Origin: a virus | Length of the DNA stretch: 5,497 nt | Virus record (IMG/VR): IMGVR_UViG_3300045988_072726 | Span: 1 to 5,497 of that record | Strand: one strand, 5' to 3' | Shown: positions 1,928 to 5,497 of the stretch, in pieces | Layout of the letters: each line of letters opens with the position of its first letter | How positions within the stretch are numbered: the stretch's first letter is position 1 | Program-made: the position numbers and the translations under genes | The notes under the pieces: model-generated | The model's database searches: none | Told to the model about the DNA's origin: nothing | Seen by the model: only the letters and a program-made list of their open reading frames with translations

Positions 1928-2185
1928 ATGAAAACCAACATTTACGCATTCAAAGACACGAAAATAGGCTTTATGCAGCCATTCCTCCAGCAGAACGAAG
2001 CAGTTGCCATGCGAACCTTAAAAATGGCCGTGAACGATGAACACAGCCAGATTAGAAACATGGCAGAAGATATCCAGCTTTATCAGCTGGGAACCTTTAA
2101 CGATGATACCGGCGAAATCAAACCGGAAGTAAAATTTATAGCAAACGCCATCGACCACAAAGAGGAAAAGAACAATGGAAATTAA
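1928..2185 (+). CDS. Hypothetical 85-aa acidic protein. Positionally it is a VP5-like (phiX C analog) candidate.
   Basis: AGGAG (1915-1919) lies 8 nt upstream of ATG 1928. It is on the same strand as the other genes. No motif I can assign. Confidence 0.5.
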   Translation: MKTNIYAFKDTKIGFMQPFLQQNEAVAMRTLKMAVNDEHSQIRNMAEDIQLYQLGTFNDDTGEIKPEVKFIANAIDHKEEKNNGN

Positions 2186-2348
2186 CGAACTGGTAAACAT
2201 CATCGGGACAATCGGTTTTCCGTGTGTAATTGCGCTGCTGCTCCTGAAAAACAATCAGGAGCAAGCAACCATCATACGAGAAAACACCAAAGTAATTCAG
2301 GCATTAGCCGACCGAATCGACAATGTGCTATCAAAAGGAGAAGAATAA
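2175..2348 (+). CDS. Putative holin, 57 aa, with a single N-terminal transmembrane helix and a charged C-terminal tail. BhlA/UviB-like topology.
   Basis: Translation is MEINELVNIIGTIGFPCVIALLLLKNNQEQATIIRENTKVIQALADRIDNVLSKGEE. It has one ~19-residue hydrophobic segment followed by a polar, coiled-coil-like tail. ATG 2175 follows GAGGAAAAG (2162-2170), and its stop TAA 2346-2348 abuts the amidase ATG 2349. It is not in the ORF track (under 60 aa). Confidence 0.5.
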   Translation: MEINELVNIIGTIGFPCVIALLLLKNNQEQATIIRENTKVIQALADRIDNVLSKGEE

Positions 2349-2957
2349 ATGAAGCTGCACACACGAATAGCATACAAAAATGCATGCTACCAAGAAGGAC
2401 AAAAGATGAAACCCAAGGGCATCATGATACACAGCACAGGATGCAACAATCCAAACCTACGAAGATATGTCGGGCCGGATGATGGAATCCTCGGAAAAAA
2501 CATCTACAAAAACCATTGGAACAACGCCTATCCGGGCGGGAAAGCAATATGCTGCCACGCATTCATAGGCAAAGACAAAAACGGAGAAATCCGAACCTAC
2601 AAAATATTACCATGGGATATGGTGGGCTGGCATTGTGGAGGAAAAGCAAACAAAACGCACATCGGCATCGAAATCTGCGAAGACCATCCAAACACAGAAC
2701 ACTACCGGGAAACATTCCGGGAAGCCGTAGAAGTAGCGGCATACTTATGCAGAGTATACCAAATCCAGCCGAAAAACATAATCAGCCACAAAGAGGGCCA
2801 CGCAAAAGGCATCGCAAGCAACCACGGAGATCCGGAACATTGGTGGATGAACTACGGTGTAACAATGGATCACTTCAGAACGGAAGTAGCAAAAGAACTC
2901 GACAGACACAAAAGCTATAACATGATGATATACGATGAGAAAGGGGAAAACACATGA
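2349..2957 (+). CDS. N-acetylmuramoyl-L-alanine amidase, Amidase_2/PGRP family (T7 lysozyme-like endolysin), 202 aa.
   Basis: Motifs align with T7 lysozyme: IMIHSTGCNNP matches IFVHCSATKP (Zn-ligand His). AICCHAFIGKDKNGEI matches GYHFIIKRDGTVE. WHCGGKANKTHIGIEIC matches GSHAKGYNHNSIGVCLVG. ISHKEGHAKGIASNHGDPEHWW matches AHHEVAPKACPSFDLKRWW. AAGGAG (2333-2338) lies upstream, and the stop overlaps the VP3 start (ATGA 2954-2957). Confidence 0.8.
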   Translation: MKLHTRIAYKNACYQEGQKMKPKGIMIHSTGCNNPNLRRYVGPDDGILGKNIYKNHWNNAYPGGKAICCHAFIGKDKNGEIRTYKILPWDMVGWHCGGKANKTHIGIEICEDHPNTEHYRETFREAVEVAAYLCRVYQIQPKNIISHKEGHAKGIASNHGDPEHWWMNYGVTMDHFRTEVAKELDRHKSYNMMIYDEKGENT

Positions 2958-3451
2958 ACTTTTACAGCCGGATTAACCCGGCGCCGGTAATCGAAGCGCC
3001 GGCCGGAAGCAAAGAAGCAACAACCTATCAAACACAAATAGACGAGAACGGCCACAAAGTAACGGTACCGACCGGAAAAACCAACATCTACGACCGCATT
3101 CAAAGCAGCCTTGAGGAAACCAAAATTGAAAACATCATCAAACGATTTACGGAAGGTGATATCTCGGCATTCAGACAGGGCGAACCGCTGTATGCAGACA
3201 TGACCGAAGCACCACGAACACTGATGGAAGCGCAGAACATGATAATCCGCATTACAAACGAATTCAACGAACTGCCAGTAGAGATAAGAGCAAAATTTGA
3301 CCACAGCCCGGAAAAATATGTTGCACTGTACGGCGGCGAAGCATGGGCGAAGGCAGTGGGCTATGAAATCAAAAAAGCCGACACAGGCGAAATTCAGGGC
3401 GCTGGCGATACCAGCACAGAACCTATTCCGGAACAGGAGGAGAAAGCATGA
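2954..3451 (+). CDS. VP3: VP3 internal scaffolding protein (analog of phiX174 B), 165 aa.
   Basis: It lies immediately upstream of, and translationally coupled to, VP1 (ATGA 3448-3451). The composition is acidic (EPIPEQEEKA tail). The sequence features IYDRIQSSLEE...NELPVEIRAKFDHSPEKYV are typical of gokushovirus VP3. Confidence 0.75.
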   Translation: MNFYSRINPAPVIEAPAGSKEATTYQTQIDENGHKVTVPTGKTNIYDRIQSSLEETKIENIIKRFTEGDISAFRQGEPLYADMTEAPRTLMEAQNMIIRITNEFNELPVEIRAKFDHSPEKYVALYGGEAWAKAVGYEIKKADTGEIQGAGDTSTEPIPEQEEKA

Positions 3452-5106
3452 ACAGAAACACCGAAAGCCATTTTTCAGTAAATCCGATAAACCTTGATAT
3501 CCAGCGAAGTAAATTCGTTAGACCATCGACACACAAAACCACATTCAACGCAGGAAACCTAATTCCAATTTATGTTGATGAAGTACTCCCGGGCGATACA
3601 TTCAAAATGAACATGAGCAGTGTAATTCGTATGAGCACGCCAATCTATCCGGTAATGGATAACGCCAACATGGATGTATACTTCTTCTTCGTACCTAACC
3701 GCCTAGTGTGGGAGCACTGGAAAGAGTTTTTCGGAGAAAACAACACGACACACTGGGAGCAACCAGTCGAATACGAGGTACCACAAATCACAGCACCGGC
3801 GGGAGGATGGGCAAAAGGAACAATCGCCGACTATATGGGCATTCCGACGCTCATTAGTAATATCAGCGTGCAAGCACTGCCTTTCAGGGCATACTGTAAA
3901 ATATGGAATGACTGGTTCCGCGACCAGAACTTAAAAGACCCGGCTATGATAAGCCTTGACGAAACAACCACGGCCGGAGCCAACACCGGGGACTATGTAA
4001 CCAACGCAGAAAAGGGAGCGCTACCGCTTAAAGTAGCAAAATACCATGACTATTTCACAGCGGCATTACCGGAACCGCAAAAAGGGCCGGAAGTCACAAT
4101 CGGCGGCGTAGGCGGCTACATGCCTGTAATTACAAGGGATGAACTTGTAACCGACACAGAAAAAAACATGAAGTGGTACACACCGGGCAACACCACAGCA
4201 ACCAATTATGCACTTGGATATACGAGCCAAGTAAATGCAAGAGGAGCAAACGACATAAAAACGGCCGTATACGGAAGCGGATTCGTAAACCAAAATCCAA
4301 TAGCACCGGCTAACCTTTGGGCAGATATGACCGTAGGAACAGCTACCAGCATTAACGCACTGCGGCAGGCGTTTGCAATTCAACGATTGTACGAGAAGAA
4401 CGCACGAGGCGGAACAAGGTACATCGAAATCATAAAGGCGCATTTTGGGGTACAATCACCGGATGCAAGGCAGCAACGAAGTGAATACCTCGGCGGAACT
4501 CGCGTACCCATCAACATGGACCAAGTAGTACAGACATCCAACACGGCCGAGGGCAGCACACCGCAGGGTAACACGGCTGCATACTCTCTGACGGCATTCA
4601 ATGAAAGCATGTTCACAAAATCGTTTACCGAACACGGATACATTATCGGCCTTGCATGCATCAGAACGGAACACACATACCAGCAGGGCATAGAACGGTT
4701 TTGGAGCCGAAAAAAGATGCTGGACTATTATTTCCCGACATTGGCAAACCTCGGAGAACAGGCCATCCTTAACAAAGAAATCTATGCACAAGGGAGCACA
4801 ACAGACGATGAAGCATTCGGGTACCAAGAAGCATGGGCAGAATACCGATACAAGCCGAGCCGAGTATCGGGAGCAATGCGAAGCAACTACCAAACCACAC
4901 TGGACGCATGGCACTATGCAGACAAATACACAAGCCAGCCGATTTTATCAAGCGAATGGATTGATGAAACAAGCGCCAACATTGATAGAACACTGGCCGT
5001 ACAAAGCGCCACCGAAGACCAATTCATAGCAGACTTTTATTTTGCCTGCGAAGCAACAAGACCAATGCCGCTATACAGCATTCCGGGCCTGATTGACCAT
5101 CACTAA
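3448..5106 (+). CDS. VP1: VP1 major capsid protein (Microviridae F-protein fold), 552 aa.
   Basis: The N-terminus MNRNTESHFSVNPINLDIQRSKFVRPSTHKTTFNAGNLIPIYVDEVLPGDTFK carries the canonical gokushovirus VP1 signature (HFS...RS.F...HKTTF.AG.L.P...LPGD.F). It is the longest ORF. GGAGGAG (3436-3442) is upstream, and TAA falls at 5104-5106. Confidence 0.95.
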   Translation: MNRNTESHFSVNPINLDIQRSKFVRPSTHKTTFNAGNLIPIYVDEVLPGDTFKMNMSSVIRMSTPIYPVMDNANMDVYFFFVPNRLVWEHWKEFFGENNTTHWEQPVEYEVPQITAPAGGWAKGTIADYMGIPTLISNISVQALPFRAYCKIWNDWFRDQNLKDPAMISLDETTTAGANTGDYVTNAEKGALPLKVAKYHDYFTAALPEPQKGPEVTIGGVGGYMPVITRDELVTDTEKNMKWYTPGNTTATNYALGYTSQVNARGANDIKTAVYGSGFVNQNPIAPANLWADMTVGTATSINALRQAFAIQRLYEKNARGGTRYIEIIKAHFGVQSPDARQQRSEYLGGTRVPINMDQVVQTSNTAEGSTPQGNTAAYSLTAFNESMFTKSFTEHGYIIGLACIRTEHTYQQGIERFWSRKKMLDYYFPTLANLGEQAILNKEIYAQGSTTDDEAFGYQEAWAEYRYKPSRVSGAMRSNYQTTLDAWHYADKYTSQPILSSEWIDETSANIDRTLAVQSATEDQFIADFYFACEATRPMPLYSIPGLIDHH

Positions 5107-5120
5107 AGGAGGGGCAAACA

Positions 5121-5497
5121 ATGGCAGGAAGTAGGGGCCGAAACCTATTCGGACGAGACAAAAACCTCTATCAAGCCGGACAAAAAGCAGTAAATGCAGC
5201 AATAACCGGATTAGGGCTAGCACTCAACCCAATAGGAAACACCACAGCAACAGCCGAAGCAGCATTCAACAAAAGCCAAATGAGCGCAAAACAAGCAATG
5301 GCATTCGAAGCCAGCCAAGCAGCGCAACAAATGGCATTCCAGCGGGAAATGCTACAAAACCAAATGCGTTTCAACAGCGCAGAAGCTGAAACCAACAGAG
5401 CATGGCAAAGACAAATGAGACAAACAGCATACCAAGACACAGTCAAAGACATGATAAAAGCCGGAATAAATCCAATACTAGCAGCACAGTTAGGTGC
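5121..5497 (+). CDS. VP2: VP2 minor capsid / DNA pilot protein, N-terminal part. The ORF runs off the window end and continues at 1..290 through the circular junction.
   Basis: ATG 5121 is preceded by AAAGGAGGGG (5106-5115). No stop occurs before the window end. The translation MAGSRGRNLFGRDKNLYQAGQKAVNAAITGLGLALNPIGN...QMAFQREMLQNQMRFNSAEAETNRAWQRQMRQTAYQDTVKDMIKAGINPILAAQ carries the conserved gokushovirus VP2 motif (QxxFNxxEA...WQ..M..TAYQ....D...AG.NP.L). Confidence 0.85.
   Translation, partial: MAGSRGRNLFGRDKNLYQAGQKAVNAAITGLGLALNPIGNTTATAEAAFNKSQMSAKQAMAFEASQAAQQMAFQREMLQNQMRFNSAEAETNRAWQRQMRQTAYQDTVKDMIKAGINPILAAQLG

Follow-up and report, generated by a model that had tools for sequence, protein, structure and literature searches.

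Two adjacent genes of a gokushovirus genome, encoding a 57-aa holin-like protein and a 202-aa putative N-acetylmuramoyl-L-alanine amidase, probably form a two-component exit (lysis) module of mosaic origin, used by a clade of gut gokushoviruses on a monoderm host among the Clostridia.

Genome and gene junctions

The window, i.e. the whole stretch of DNA analysed (5,497 nt), closes with a 55-nt terminal direct repeat of its own start, and the circular complete genome comprises 5,442 nt. Gokushoviruses were recognised by a circular genome of 4.5-6 kb that carries VP1-VP5 and a gene for a small basic DNA-binding protein. Pfam identified VP1 (Phage_F), VP3 (Chlamy_scaf), VP5 (Phage_ORF5) and VP4 (Rep), which bears out the gokushovirus setting of the preliminary description. 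With Pfam and PHROG combined, the gokushovirus-type set of VP1, VP2, VP3, VP4, VP5 and the small basic DNA-binding protein is present, every gene lying on the + strand. The GenBank entry ‘Gokushovirus WZ-2015a’ (KT264796) is 82-88% identical to the window at the nucleotide level.

The pair lies between VP5 (1928..2185; Pfam PF20577, E=3.8e-22, supported by the sequence and a junction alignment) and the late gene for the internal scaffolding protein VP3 (2954..3451; Chlamy_scaf, E=6.6e-35, supported by relatives). The ATG of the 57-aa ORF (2175-2348) is located within the last 11 nt of VP5, whose stop codon TAA falls on codons 3-4 of this ORF. The TAA of the 57-aa ORF (2346-2348) is directly followed by the ATG of the 202-aa ORF (2349-2957), so that the two abut over 2175-2957 exactly as had been described. 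The translational link to the late genes holds as well: in the ATGA at 2954..2957 the start of VP3 (ATG, 2954-2956) overlaps the stop of the amidase gene (TGA, 2955-2957), and an equivalent coupling joins VP3 to VP1 at 3448-3451.

Strong ribosome-binding sites (AAAGGAG/GGAGG) precede most genes. That of the amidase, AAAGGAG (2334..2340), is situated within the final codons of the holin-like gene, and the context AAAGGAG-N-ATGAA is seen again at orf62 and VP5. A Shine-Dalgarno-like AAGAGG (2160..2165) is found 9 nt 5' of the ATG of the 57-aa ORF. This ATG is present in three of the 17 clade genome copies, the other 14 having ATA, so that expression of the holin-like gene in these depends on non-canonical initiation; in 12 of the 14 ATA-start copies the position of the AAGAGG site reads AAGGAGGTGA. 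Because of its non-ATG start the ORF is systematically overlooked by gene callers. A promoter and terminator scan returned counts not above shuffled expectation, and no cassette-internal promoter can be claimed.

The amidase

The 202-aa protein (2349..2957, + strand) scores 63.2 bits with Pfam Amidase_2 (PF01510; curated threshold 26 bits, E=4e-17), the alignment spanning profile positions 2-130 of 131, and matches PHROG 15001 ‘endolysin’ with E=1.7e-51. The AF2 model (pLDDT 83.4, pTM 0.85) returned 38 PDB matches at E<=1e-3, all of which are Amidase_2 enzymes or PGRPs. Foldseek placed PlyP100, AmiA, PlyL, XlyA, AmiE, PlyG and LytA at the top, with E about 1e-9.

Across 40 amidase homologues H28, E108, H147 and D161 do not vary, and H159 is retained in at least 90%. 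His28 (codon 2430..2432, motif IHSTG) aligns with the ‘VHNT’ His of XlyA and PlyL and is the likely first Zn ligand. Glu108 (2670..2672, motif IEICE) aligns with ‘EICE’ of XlyA and with Glu87 of LytA and would be the catalytic Glu, while His147 (2787..2789), aligned with the ‘PHK’ His of XlyA and His133 of LytA, would be the second Zn ligand. The conserved motif NHGDP (codons of His159-Gly-Asp161 at 2823..2831) probably contributes the catalytic His and, as third Zn ligand, the Asp; hhalign aligned it with ‘DHVDP’ (His147, Asp149) of LytA, in which E87, H133, H147 and D149 have these roles. No match was obtained by phmmer against the PDB with the 70-residue C-terminal segment. The active site thus composed appears to be an intact one of the LytA/AmiE/PlyL kind with a His-His-Asp Zn triad, and the protein is predicted to cleave the MurNAc-L-Ala bond. 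The Amidase_2 assignment of the preliminary description was therefore sound, with Zn-ligand and catalytic residues intact; its T7-lysozyme type was mistaken, as that enzyme has His-His-Cys.

The fold is shared with LytA, AmiE and PlyL (PDB 4ivv, 3lat, 1yb0) at Foldseek E values of about 1e-9 to 1e-6, although identity is only 16-22%. The Zn triad, the catalytic Glu and His and the H-x-D-P motif of these enzymes are apparently all matched. They carry choline-binding, SH3b or other targeting modules; the window amidase does not. It consists of the catalytic domain only, terminates 14 residues past it and has no wall-binding domain, in departure from the Gram-positive-type modular build of catalytic plus cell-wall-binding domain. 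This build is common among Gram-positive-type endolysins and not obligatory. Neither a signal peptide nor a SAR segment is present, the maximum 19-residue hydropathy being 0.49 and the N-terminus, MKLHTRIAYKNACYQEGQK, polar. The gene adjoins that of the holin-like protein, whose identity as a holin is predicted.

The holin-like protein

The N-terminus of the 57-aa protein (2175..2348, + strand) is short and acidic; one TM helix and, at the C-terminal end, a charged amphipathic helix follow. The single TM helix noticed earlier was recovered at residues 6-24 (LVNIIGTIGFPCVIALLLL; 2190..2246, + strand) with a Kyte-Doolittle 19-mer mean of 2.42, and contains the invariant columns G14, F15 and P16 (G-F-P motif). 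AF2 modelled a single helix from residue 3 to 53 (pLDDT 80). Among the C-terminal 33 residues 5 are basic and 6 acidic. Holins were recognised by small size, the presence of one or more TM helices and a hydrophilic, charged C-terminus; all three features are found, and no other TM protein is encoded in the genome. PHROG 4898, whose label ‘holin’ is computational and not experimental, was matched by the window protein (4.6e-5), by its counterpart in MT836502 (1.3e-7) and by that in C. perfringens phage vB_CPP_AT (4.7e-13). Together with the podoviral homologues and the selection described below, these properties suggest that the protein is a holin.

The term ‘canonical holin’ and the proposed Holin_BhlA relationship went too far, the name resting on the computational PHROG label and on synteny. 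No curated holin family, Holin_BhlA (PF10960) included, was matched at E<=1 in Pfam by the window protein or its 18 homologues, and the NCBIfam search of the 57-aa protein returned no holin family. All Pfam/NCBIfam signals of the family, YvrJ and DUF3090, are sub-threshold; the only one from Pfam is a weak YvrJ match, seen in 17 of the 19 members at a best E of about 1e-3, and one homologue is publicly annotated as ‘YvrJ protein family’. This would suit a different assignment, by which the amidase is real and serves lysis but reaches the wall otherwise, while the 57-aa protein anchors replication or assembly at the membrane, acts in superinfection exclusion or is YvrJ-like. The scarcity of ATG starts in the clade agrees with such an assignment, as does the location of the gene in phi29-like gut podoviruses, where packaging ATPase and scaffold/capsid genes flank it and the GH25 lysin is encoded at a distance. 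We nevertheless regard it as unlikely. Proteins of the 57-aa type are the only small TM proteins in the microvirus and in the podoviruses, and the lysins of the latter are signal-less, so that these phages need a holin. Moreover, the family adjoins an endolysin gene in two unrelated contexts, Amidase_2 in 17/17 microviral copies and Amidase_3 in podovirus vB_CPP_AT. Size, the single TM helix and the charged C-terminus follow the holin pattern, and purifying selection on the gene is strong.

Proposed function and host

The role in lysis suggested here for the pair is read from the two sequences. Transcription of the pair would accompany that of the late genes and run from VP5 through the holin-like gene and the amidase to VP3 and VP1. 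The 57-aa protein would enter the cytoplasmic membrane of the host by its single N-terminal TM helix, build up there and permeabilise the membrane. The signal-less amidase would thereby be released from the cytoplasm and cut MurNAc-L-Ala of the peptidoglycan by means of its LytA/AmiE-type Zn site, and the cell would burst. No spanin-like gene was found in the genome, and all dsDNA relatives of both genes are from Firmicutes phages or genomes; a monoderm member of the Clostridia (Oscillospirales) is therefore the most likely host, as judged from the gene relatives and the ribosome-binding sites.

A fuller reading is offered tentatively, as one whose parts we are less than evenly confident will all hold together. 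According to it, a mammalian-gut gokushovirus clade lives on monoderm Clostridia (Oscillospirales) and leaves its host by a module from two lineages of tailed phages, its holin having passed between viral realms in an exchange with phi29-like podoviruses. The endolysin would have been stripped of its wall-binding domain to suit the T=1 capsid, and the polymorphic start codon (ATG or ATA) would set holin output, with initiation from a perfect Shine-Dalgarno or termination-reinitiation at the VP5 stop.

The amidase could instead act at entry, virion-associated or released early, and open the thick Gram-positive wall for genome delivery. Its small size and lost wall-binding domain would suit packaging, a thick wall is an evident penetration problem for a T=1 phage, and the lytic enzyme of microvirus Ebor occurs in trace amounts in virions (PMC11980548, Table 1). 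Yet the amidase gene directly follows the holin-like gene and is co-expressed with the late genes, its nearest homologues are annotated endolysins neighbouring holins, and a capsid-association motif is not evident. In microviruses, moreover, DNA delivery goes through the VP2/H pilot protein. An entry enzyme is thus improbable.

We consider it still more improbable that the 57-aa protein brings about lysis singly, in the manner of phiX174 E, through a TM helix that inhibits an enzyme of wall synthesis, the amidase being accessory. It is among microviruses that single-gene lysis proteins are classically found. Like the 57-aa protein, for which a lysis role is predicted, protein E is small and microviral and has an N-terminal TM helix with a conserved proline; Pro21 of E is essential, and the proline of the G-F-P motif is invariant. 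However, no sequence similarity to E was found. E is overprinted in gene D, inhibits MraY and needs no muralytic enzyme, whereas the window has a separate ORF, overlapping VP5 by only 11 nt, and an amidase. Close homologues are encoded by dsDNA podoviruses with muralytic enzymes of their own, where an amurin would be redundant, and a lysin co-occurs with the homologues in 17/17 microviral copies and in the podoviral genomes examined.

Conservation of the pair

The pair is no peculiarity of one genome and is fixed in the clade: both genes occupy the same site in all 17 genome copies examined. They occur in independent assemblies (pig and human faeces, IMG/VR, SRA), and clade members have been in GenBank since 2015-2018 with the pair labelled ‘hypothetical’ or unannotated. 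In the next-nearest microviruses VP5 directly abuts VP3 and there is no cassette, the junction being uninterrupted in them. Both genes are under purifying selection: dN/dS is 0.091 in the amidase, as it is in VP1, and 0.078 in the holin-like gene (VP4, 0.071). With dS at about 0.9-1.0 the pair has diverged in step with the core genes, and its third-position composition fits the microviral genome, not the dsDNA homologues. An 11.3-kb amidase contig (L073; P0012), considered as an integrated prophage copy, turned out to be an assembly concatemer of two clade genomes.

An artefactual assembly that joined microvirus to tailed-phage reads might be suspected behind the cassette, given the metagenomic origin and this related concatemer, but is refuted by the identical site in independent assemblies, the divergence in step with the core genes, the microviral third-position bias and the self-closure of the contig by its repeat.

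Relatives and origin of the two genes

Checking the relatives of the amidase, as had been proposed, showed that the nearest non-microviral ones are endolysins of Clostridia/Oscillospirales (54-60% identity) and that the microviral amidases are monophyletic. The closest homologues in cells and phages come without exception from Clostridia and carry SPOR, LysM, PG_binding_1 or SH3 domains. The amidase may thus go back to a single acquisition of an Oscillospirales-type endolysin whose C-terminal wall-binding domain was lost afterwards.

The holin-like protein is 70-84% identical to a protein of phi29-like gut podoviruses (~15 kb) that is their sole small membrane protein. These podoviruses also encode a signal-less GH25 lysin, and they have relatives among phages whose isolation hosts were Hungatella, Clostridium symbiosum and Bacillus. 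In a neighbour-joining tree (57-residue alignment, no support values) the microviral proteins fall inside the podoviral diversity, and the gene would accordingly be nested among the holin-like genes of these small phages. The podoviral genes are no compositional outliers in their own genomes, which gives no transfer direction.

When about 90 loci were searched with a holin-family HMM against stop-to-stop ORFs, the two genes were not found together in any dsDNA phage or prophage, and the holin family was confined to microviruses and phi29-like podoviruses. By tblastn no holin-like homologue was seen beside amidase homologues. The capture from tailed phages proposed in the preliminary description is hence upheld insofar as both genes are related to tailed dsDNA phages; a single-donor cassette is not supported, as the nearest dsDNA relatives of the two genes differ, although an unsampled donor could have carried both. 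From the shared site in 17/17 copies, the purifying selection, the microviral composition and the cassette-free next-nearest relatives we conclude that the pair is an old, clade-specific, mosaic acquisition.

Comparison with other lysis systems

Firmicutes tailed-phage cassettes, represented by Oscillospiraceae phage NatCom_11393 and C. perfringens podovirus vB_CPP_AT, show the same order, with a small TM protein directly 5' of a signal-less amidase. Their amidase is 55-58% identical to the window amidase domain, and their holin-like protein and that of the window fall into one PHROG family. Unlike in these cassettes, the window amidase has no wall-binding domain, the genes come from differing phage lineages, and the pair resides in an ssDNA genome of 5.4 kb, where its translation is coupled to that of capsid genes.

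Lysis enzymes acquired from elsewhere have been described in microviruses before, and only the holin partner and the hint at the host are new here. The notion that these phages are endolysin-free, from which the preliminary description started, is outdated (PMC3394797, PMC9239249, PMC11980548): M15 peptidases were reported as ‘possible endolysins’ of gut gokushoviruses in 2012, peptidase/amidase accessory lysis genes across microvirus families in 2022, and peptidoglycan degradation by an Amidase_2-type enzyme of microvirus Ebor was shown in 2025, respectively. Gp7 of Ebor, a Tainavirinae microvirus of Rhodobacter capsulatus, resembles the window amidase in being horizontally acquired, catalytic-domain-only and of the Amidase_2 type (PMC11980548). 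LysC (6SSC), its HHpred match, is also matched by the window amidase (Foldseek rank 21), and Ebor likewise has a small membrane protein, Gp1 (45 aa; PMC11980548). Ebor differs in its microvirus family, its diderm alphaproteobacterial host and the genome position of the gene. Gp7 has 146 aa versus 202 aa, the genes for Gp1 and Gp7 are not adjacent, and no holin role was proposed for Gp1. The activity of Gp7 was shown by experiment, whereas that of the window amidase is predicted.

The M15_3 peptidases of human-gut Gokushovirinae/Alpavirinae (Roux et al. 2012, PMC3394797) are also products of horizontally acquired peptidoglycan-cleaving genes, whose nearest relatives in Clostridiales suggested Gram-positive hosts. 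They are peptidases of the peptide cross-bridge, as opposed to the predicted MurNAc-L-Ala amidase of the window. No holin partner was identified in the M15_3 microviral genomes, holins being noted only next to the bacterial/prophage homologues (PMC3394797).

Implications

In the open-access full-text literature a microviral holin gene was nowhere reported, which is not proof of absence. We know of no gokushovirus isolated on a Gram-positive bacterium. On the exit of microviruses other than phiX174 and the hosts of the abundant gut gokushoviruses, the clade offers a concrete, testable answer for one lineage, with the substrate preference of the amidase and the relatives of the holin as pointers to Oscillospirales and other Clostridia. 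The pair also documents an exchange of genes between ssDNA microviruses and tailed dsDNA phages that goes past the ‘peptidases and methyltransferases’ recorded to date (PMC9239249). In practical terms its value is modest, an amidase of 202 aa, compact and domain-minimal, being a possible reagent against hard-to-culture gut Clostridia.

Genome organisation

The window is a complete circular microvirus genome with a unit length of 5,442 nt, closed by an exact 55-nt direct terminal repeat (1–55 = 5443–5497). Genes were assigned by ORF, Pfam and PHROG analysis and all lie on the + strand: VP4 Rep (372–1412), a small ORF (1582–1770), a small basic protein of PHROG 10695 (1771–1902), VP5 (1928–2185; Phage_ORF5, E = 3.8e-22), the 57-aa holin-like ORF (2175–2348), the 202-aa amidase ORF (2349–2957), VP3 (2954–3451; Chlamy_scaf, E = 6.6e-35), VP1 (3448–5106; Phage_F, E = 2.3e-176) and the VP2 pilot protein. 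The latter runs from 5121 to the end, crosses the repeat junction and continues to 290, and was missing from the ORF list because it spans the junction of the circle. Most genes have a strong AAAGGAG/GGAGG ribosome-binding site upstream. The gene junctions agree with the preliminary description: the 57-aa ORF starts 11 nt ahead of the VP5 stop, the ATG of the 202-aa ORF comes immediately after the TAA of the 57-aa ORF, and the stop of the 202-aa ORF overlaps the VP3 start as ATGA. The holin plus Amidase_2 cassette proposed there is present, looks functional and is clade-specific, its holin component being a prediction. We regard it as rather likely that the cassette forms the holin-endolysin exit module of a gokushovirus lineage whose probable hosts are Gram-positive gut Clostridia, with both holin and host predicted.

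For the PHROG 10695 protein, the second ATG (1789) is the probable start, being preceded by a AAAGGGGGTGA ribosome-binding site; the first (1771) has none, and the alignment of relatives begins only at residue 5. The VP4–orf62 intergenic region (1415–1458 and 1528–1556) contains overlapping G+C-rich hairpins (GGGGGC...GCCCCC; CCCCCC...GGGGGG then a T-rich run) and the best promoter-like site of the genome, TAGAAA-17-TATAAT, with 10/12 matches. Counts of promoter- and terminator-like sites were no higher than in shuffled controls. The region may represent a terminator or origin, plus a late promoter.

Conservation of the gene pair

Megablast returned nine GenBank microviruses with 78–87% nucleotide identity to the window, one of human faecal origin (KT264796, ‘Gokushovirus WZ-2015a’) and eight of pig faecal origin. 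Both genes were detected by tblastn in all nine. Of these, eight records were fetched, and in each the pair occupies the same site, as it does in two IMG/VR genomes and additional SRA/ENA contigs. Existing annotation either calls the genes ‘hypothetical protein’ or omits them. With clustering at 90% identity, the protein database contains 27 amidase clusters with 73–89% identity, all of 183–202 aa, and the contigs concerned are microvirus-sized (about 5.8 kb or less), except for an 11.3-kb concatemer of two clade genomes. Among 2,704 VP1-matching INPHARED records, the amidase is carried by these nine only. In three of the next-nearest microviruses (MG945858, OM869545 and MK496797; VP1 identity 63–68%) the VP5 stop overlaps the VP3 start and there is no gene in between. 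The possibility that the two ORFs are universal structural genes in relatives can be set aside.

In pairwise Nei-Gojobori comparisons among 11 genomes (dS about 0.9–1.0), the holin-like gene had a dN/dS of 0.078 and the amidase one of 0.091; VP1, VP4 and VP3 gave 0.091, 0.071 and 0.090, respectively. Third codon positions of both genes follow the strand bias of the whole genome (A 0.39–0.40, T 0.08–0.14); those of dsDNA homologues have T 0.16–0.35 and A 0.10–0.24. This microviral bias, together with dN/dS at a purifying level, argues for long residence in the ssDNA genome. Monophyly of the microviral amidases in a neighbour-joining tree implies a single acquisition. The pair is a fixed, old and clade-specific feature, not an artefact.

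The concatemer (JAHXDW010001580.1 in GCA_019971095.1; 11,339 nt), filed under a bacterial assembly, joins two different clade genomes head-to-tail, and its two amidases share 86% and 82% identity with that of the window. An assembly or binning artefact is the probable explanation, rather than a prophage. KT264796.1 contains a partial tandem VP5 duplication at 3713–4146 (tblastn matches 3713–3940 and 3931–4146), of which the record annotates the first copy alone; it gives no annotation for VP3 (4145–5415), the amidase or the holin-like gene.

The amidase

The 202-aa protein matched Pfam Amidase_2 with 63.2 bits (E = 4e-17; cut-off 26 bits) and 12 PHROG endolysin/amidase families (best E = 1.7e-51), and PDB sequence searches returned PlyL, XlyA, PlyG and LytA. 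An AlphaFold2 model based on 40 homologues (pLDDT 83.4, pTM 0.85) was compared with the PDB using Foldseek. All matches were Amidase_2 enzymes or PGRPs, headed by the Gram-positive endolysins/autolysins PlyP100, AmiA, PlyL, XlyA, AmiE, PlyG and LytA (E about 1e-9 to 1e-6). H28, E108, H147 and D161 are invariant in the 40 homologues and H159 is conserved in at least 90%. In HMMER alignments H28, E108 and H147 fall on the His and Glu positions of XlyA/PlyL, and hhalign to LytA paired E108, H147, H159 and D161 with LytA E87, H133, H147 and D149. Residue roles follow the LytA and AmiE literature. Given this alignment, which includes D161, the predicted active site is His-His-Asp of the LytA/AmiE kind and not the His-His-Cys of T7 lysozyme. 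The assignment to Amidase_2 was borne out by a significant match with conserved Zn-ligand and catalytic positions; of the T7-lysozyme/PGRP-type amidase initially proposed, the family and an intact predicted site are retained, while the type of site is revised. We hold with high confidence that the 202-aa protein is a functional amidase.

No hydrophobic N-terminus was found in the enzyme (maximum 19-mer hydropathy 0.49), which is therefore expected to be cytoplasmic unless released by something. It consists of the catalytic domain and a 14-residue tail, whereas relatives at 54–60% identity are all 230–350 aa long with SPOR, LysM, PG_binding_1 or SH3 wall-binding modules. The absence of a wall-binding domain plausibly reflects how tightly packaging is limited; lysis from within does not require such a domain, as is known for some Gram-positive endolysins, e.g. 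PlyL. A conserved C-terminal tail of 14–17 residues (2904–2957, residues 186–202; HK-S/D/E-Y-x-x-M-I-Y-D-x-K-G) is common to microviral amidases, absent from all dsDNA homologues and of low confidence in the model, and its last codons also serve as the VP3 ribosome-binding site.

The holin-like protein

The 57-aa protein, the sole membrane protein encoded in the genome, comprises an acidic N-terminus, one strongly hydrophobic segment (residues 6–24, mean hydropathy 2.42) and a charged stretch of 33 residues; AlphaFold2 predicted a single continuous helix (residues 3–53). It matched PHROG 4898 ‘holin’ (E = 4.6e-5) and none of the Pfam and NCBIfam holin families; it is holin-like without belonging to a curated holin family. 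YvrJ matches were obtained with 17/19 homologues, all sub-threshold (best E about 1e-3), and GenBank names one of the homologues ‘YvrJ protein family protein [Microviridae sp.]’.

Gut metagenomes contain ~15-kb phi29-like podovirus contigs with homologues of 56–57 aa (70–84% identity); these contigs encode protein-primed DNA polymerase, gp16 ATPase, Phi29_MCP, connector and collar; a 65-aa relative (60% identity) is present in GenBank MT836502. The podoviral homologues (56–65 aa, 60–84% identity) are located at 7449–7619, 7830–8003, 7792–7965 and 2615–2812 in loci L077, L079, L080 and L074, respectively, and nucleotide similarity between the window and the podoviruses is restricted to the ORF (70–74% over 2175–2348). 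Because these podoviruses encode no other small membrane protein and their GH25 lysin lacks a signal sequence, the homologue is, by elimination, their only holin candidate. It lies between the gp16 ATPase and scaffold/capsid genes and does not adjoin the lysin, which is about 4 kb off. In the C. perfringens podovirus vB_CPP_AT a more distant PHROG 4898 member (E = 4.7e-13) abuts an Amidase_3 endolysin. Occurrence of the family beside two amidase types in two unrelated virus groups provides good circumstantial support for a holin role, and we predict, with reasonable though not high confidence, that the 57-aa protein is the holin. The capsid proteins of MT836502 and L079 are 96% identical, their holins only about 67% (hand count).

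Start codon of the holin-like ORF

At the position of the window ATG (2175–2177), 14 of 17 clade genome copies have ATA; ATG occurs in only three, namely the window, MG945746 and one ENA contig; the loci compared also included L001–L005, L007, L008, L041, L042, L073 (two copies) and L088–L090. A full Shine-Dalgarno consensus match, AAGGAGGTGA, ends about 7 nt 5′ of the ATA in 12/14 ATA variants and has one mismatch in the remaining two; the sites of ATG variants are weaker. In every copy, the TAA of VP5 lies across holin codons 3–4 (ATTAA). The protein is nevertheless kept across copies, with many synonymous changes, which implies that most clade members would need non-AUG initiation (AUA or AUU) or termination-reinitiation. 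Gene callers miss the ORF in ATA genomes. A weak start may plausibly be a way of holding holin output low.

Origin, host and proposed mechanism

Genome matches to the amidase were all from Clostridia (32/32), mostly MAGs of Oscillospiraceae, Acutalibacteraceae and Ruminococcaceae, with Ca. Pararuminococcus gallinarum as the top match (57%). The best phage matches (55–58%) were Oscillospirales, Evtepia and Oscillospiraceae phages, annotated ‘endolysin’ and in some cases adjoining a ‘holin’. The holin-like genes preceding the amidase at these loci are of other types (2-TM of ~95 aa, 3-TM of ~157 aa, 1-TM plus coiled coil), and an HMM of the window holin family detected no member beside any dsDNA amidase homologue searched. 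In their capsid proteins, the phi29-like podoviruses share about 40% identity with phages whose isolation hosts were Hungatella, Clostridium symbiosum and Bacillus. With separate relatives for amidase and holin, the module appears as a mosaic of two tailed-phage lineages, both of Firmicutes. A neighbour-joining holin tree (57 alignment columns, no support values), rooted on the C. perfringens homologue, nests the microviral holins within podoviral diversity and suggests that the gene moved from podovirus to microvirus; base composition gave no signal for the direction of transfer. No spanin-like gene or second membrane protein was found in the window genome. This, together with the strong ribosome-binding sites and the relatives of both genes, points to monoderm (Gram-positive) gut Clostridia as the probable host.

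In the most likely course of events, VP5 would be made first from the late transcript, followed by the holin-like protein, with its start within the VP5 stop region. For the amidase, translation would begin at a separate AAAGGAG site that falls in the final codons of the holin-like gene; VP3 would follow via the ATGA overlap, and then VP1. Build-up of the holin-like protein in the membrane would lead to permeabilisation, allowing the amidase to escape and to cleave MurNAc-L-Ala bonds, resulting in cell lysis.

Relation to known microviral lysins

The preliminary description took microviruses to be endolysin-free, a view outdated by earlier reports. M15_3 peptidase ‘possible endolysin’ genes were described in five gut gokushoviruses and six alpaviruses, and Clostridiales hosts were proposed (Roux et al., 2012; PMC3394797). 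Peptidase/amidase accessory lysis genes are a conserved feature of Families 2, 7 and 14 and turn up sporadically in others; the same study, in which the word ‘holin’ is absent, reported a ~200-aa hypothetical protein common to Families 3, 4, 7 and dsDNA phages, as well as the first microviral prophages of Gram-positive bacteria (Kirchberger et al., 2022; PMC9239249). The Amidase_2-type enzyme Gp7 of Ebor (HHpred 6SSC) broke down peptidoglycan in vitro, and was presented as the first case in an ssDNA phage to be verified by experiment (PMC11980548). Acquired lysins in microviruses are therefore already known, and sequences of the present clade have been public for years. Searches of the open-access full-text literature turned up no description of a microviral holin gene. 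The new elements are the predicted holin partner, the loss of the wall-binding domain, the start-codon polymorphism and the mosaic tailed-phage origin, including a gene in common with phi29-like podoviruses.

Two cassette-free genomes encode proteins, both without a Pfam match, that are candidates for other lysis genes at other sites. These are a 111-aa single-TM protein after VP2 in MG945858.1 (4843–5178) and, between VP3 and VP1 in NC_040350.1 (2310–3005), a 231-aa protein that has a TM segment at its N-terminus and contains the motif ‘HVHIE’.
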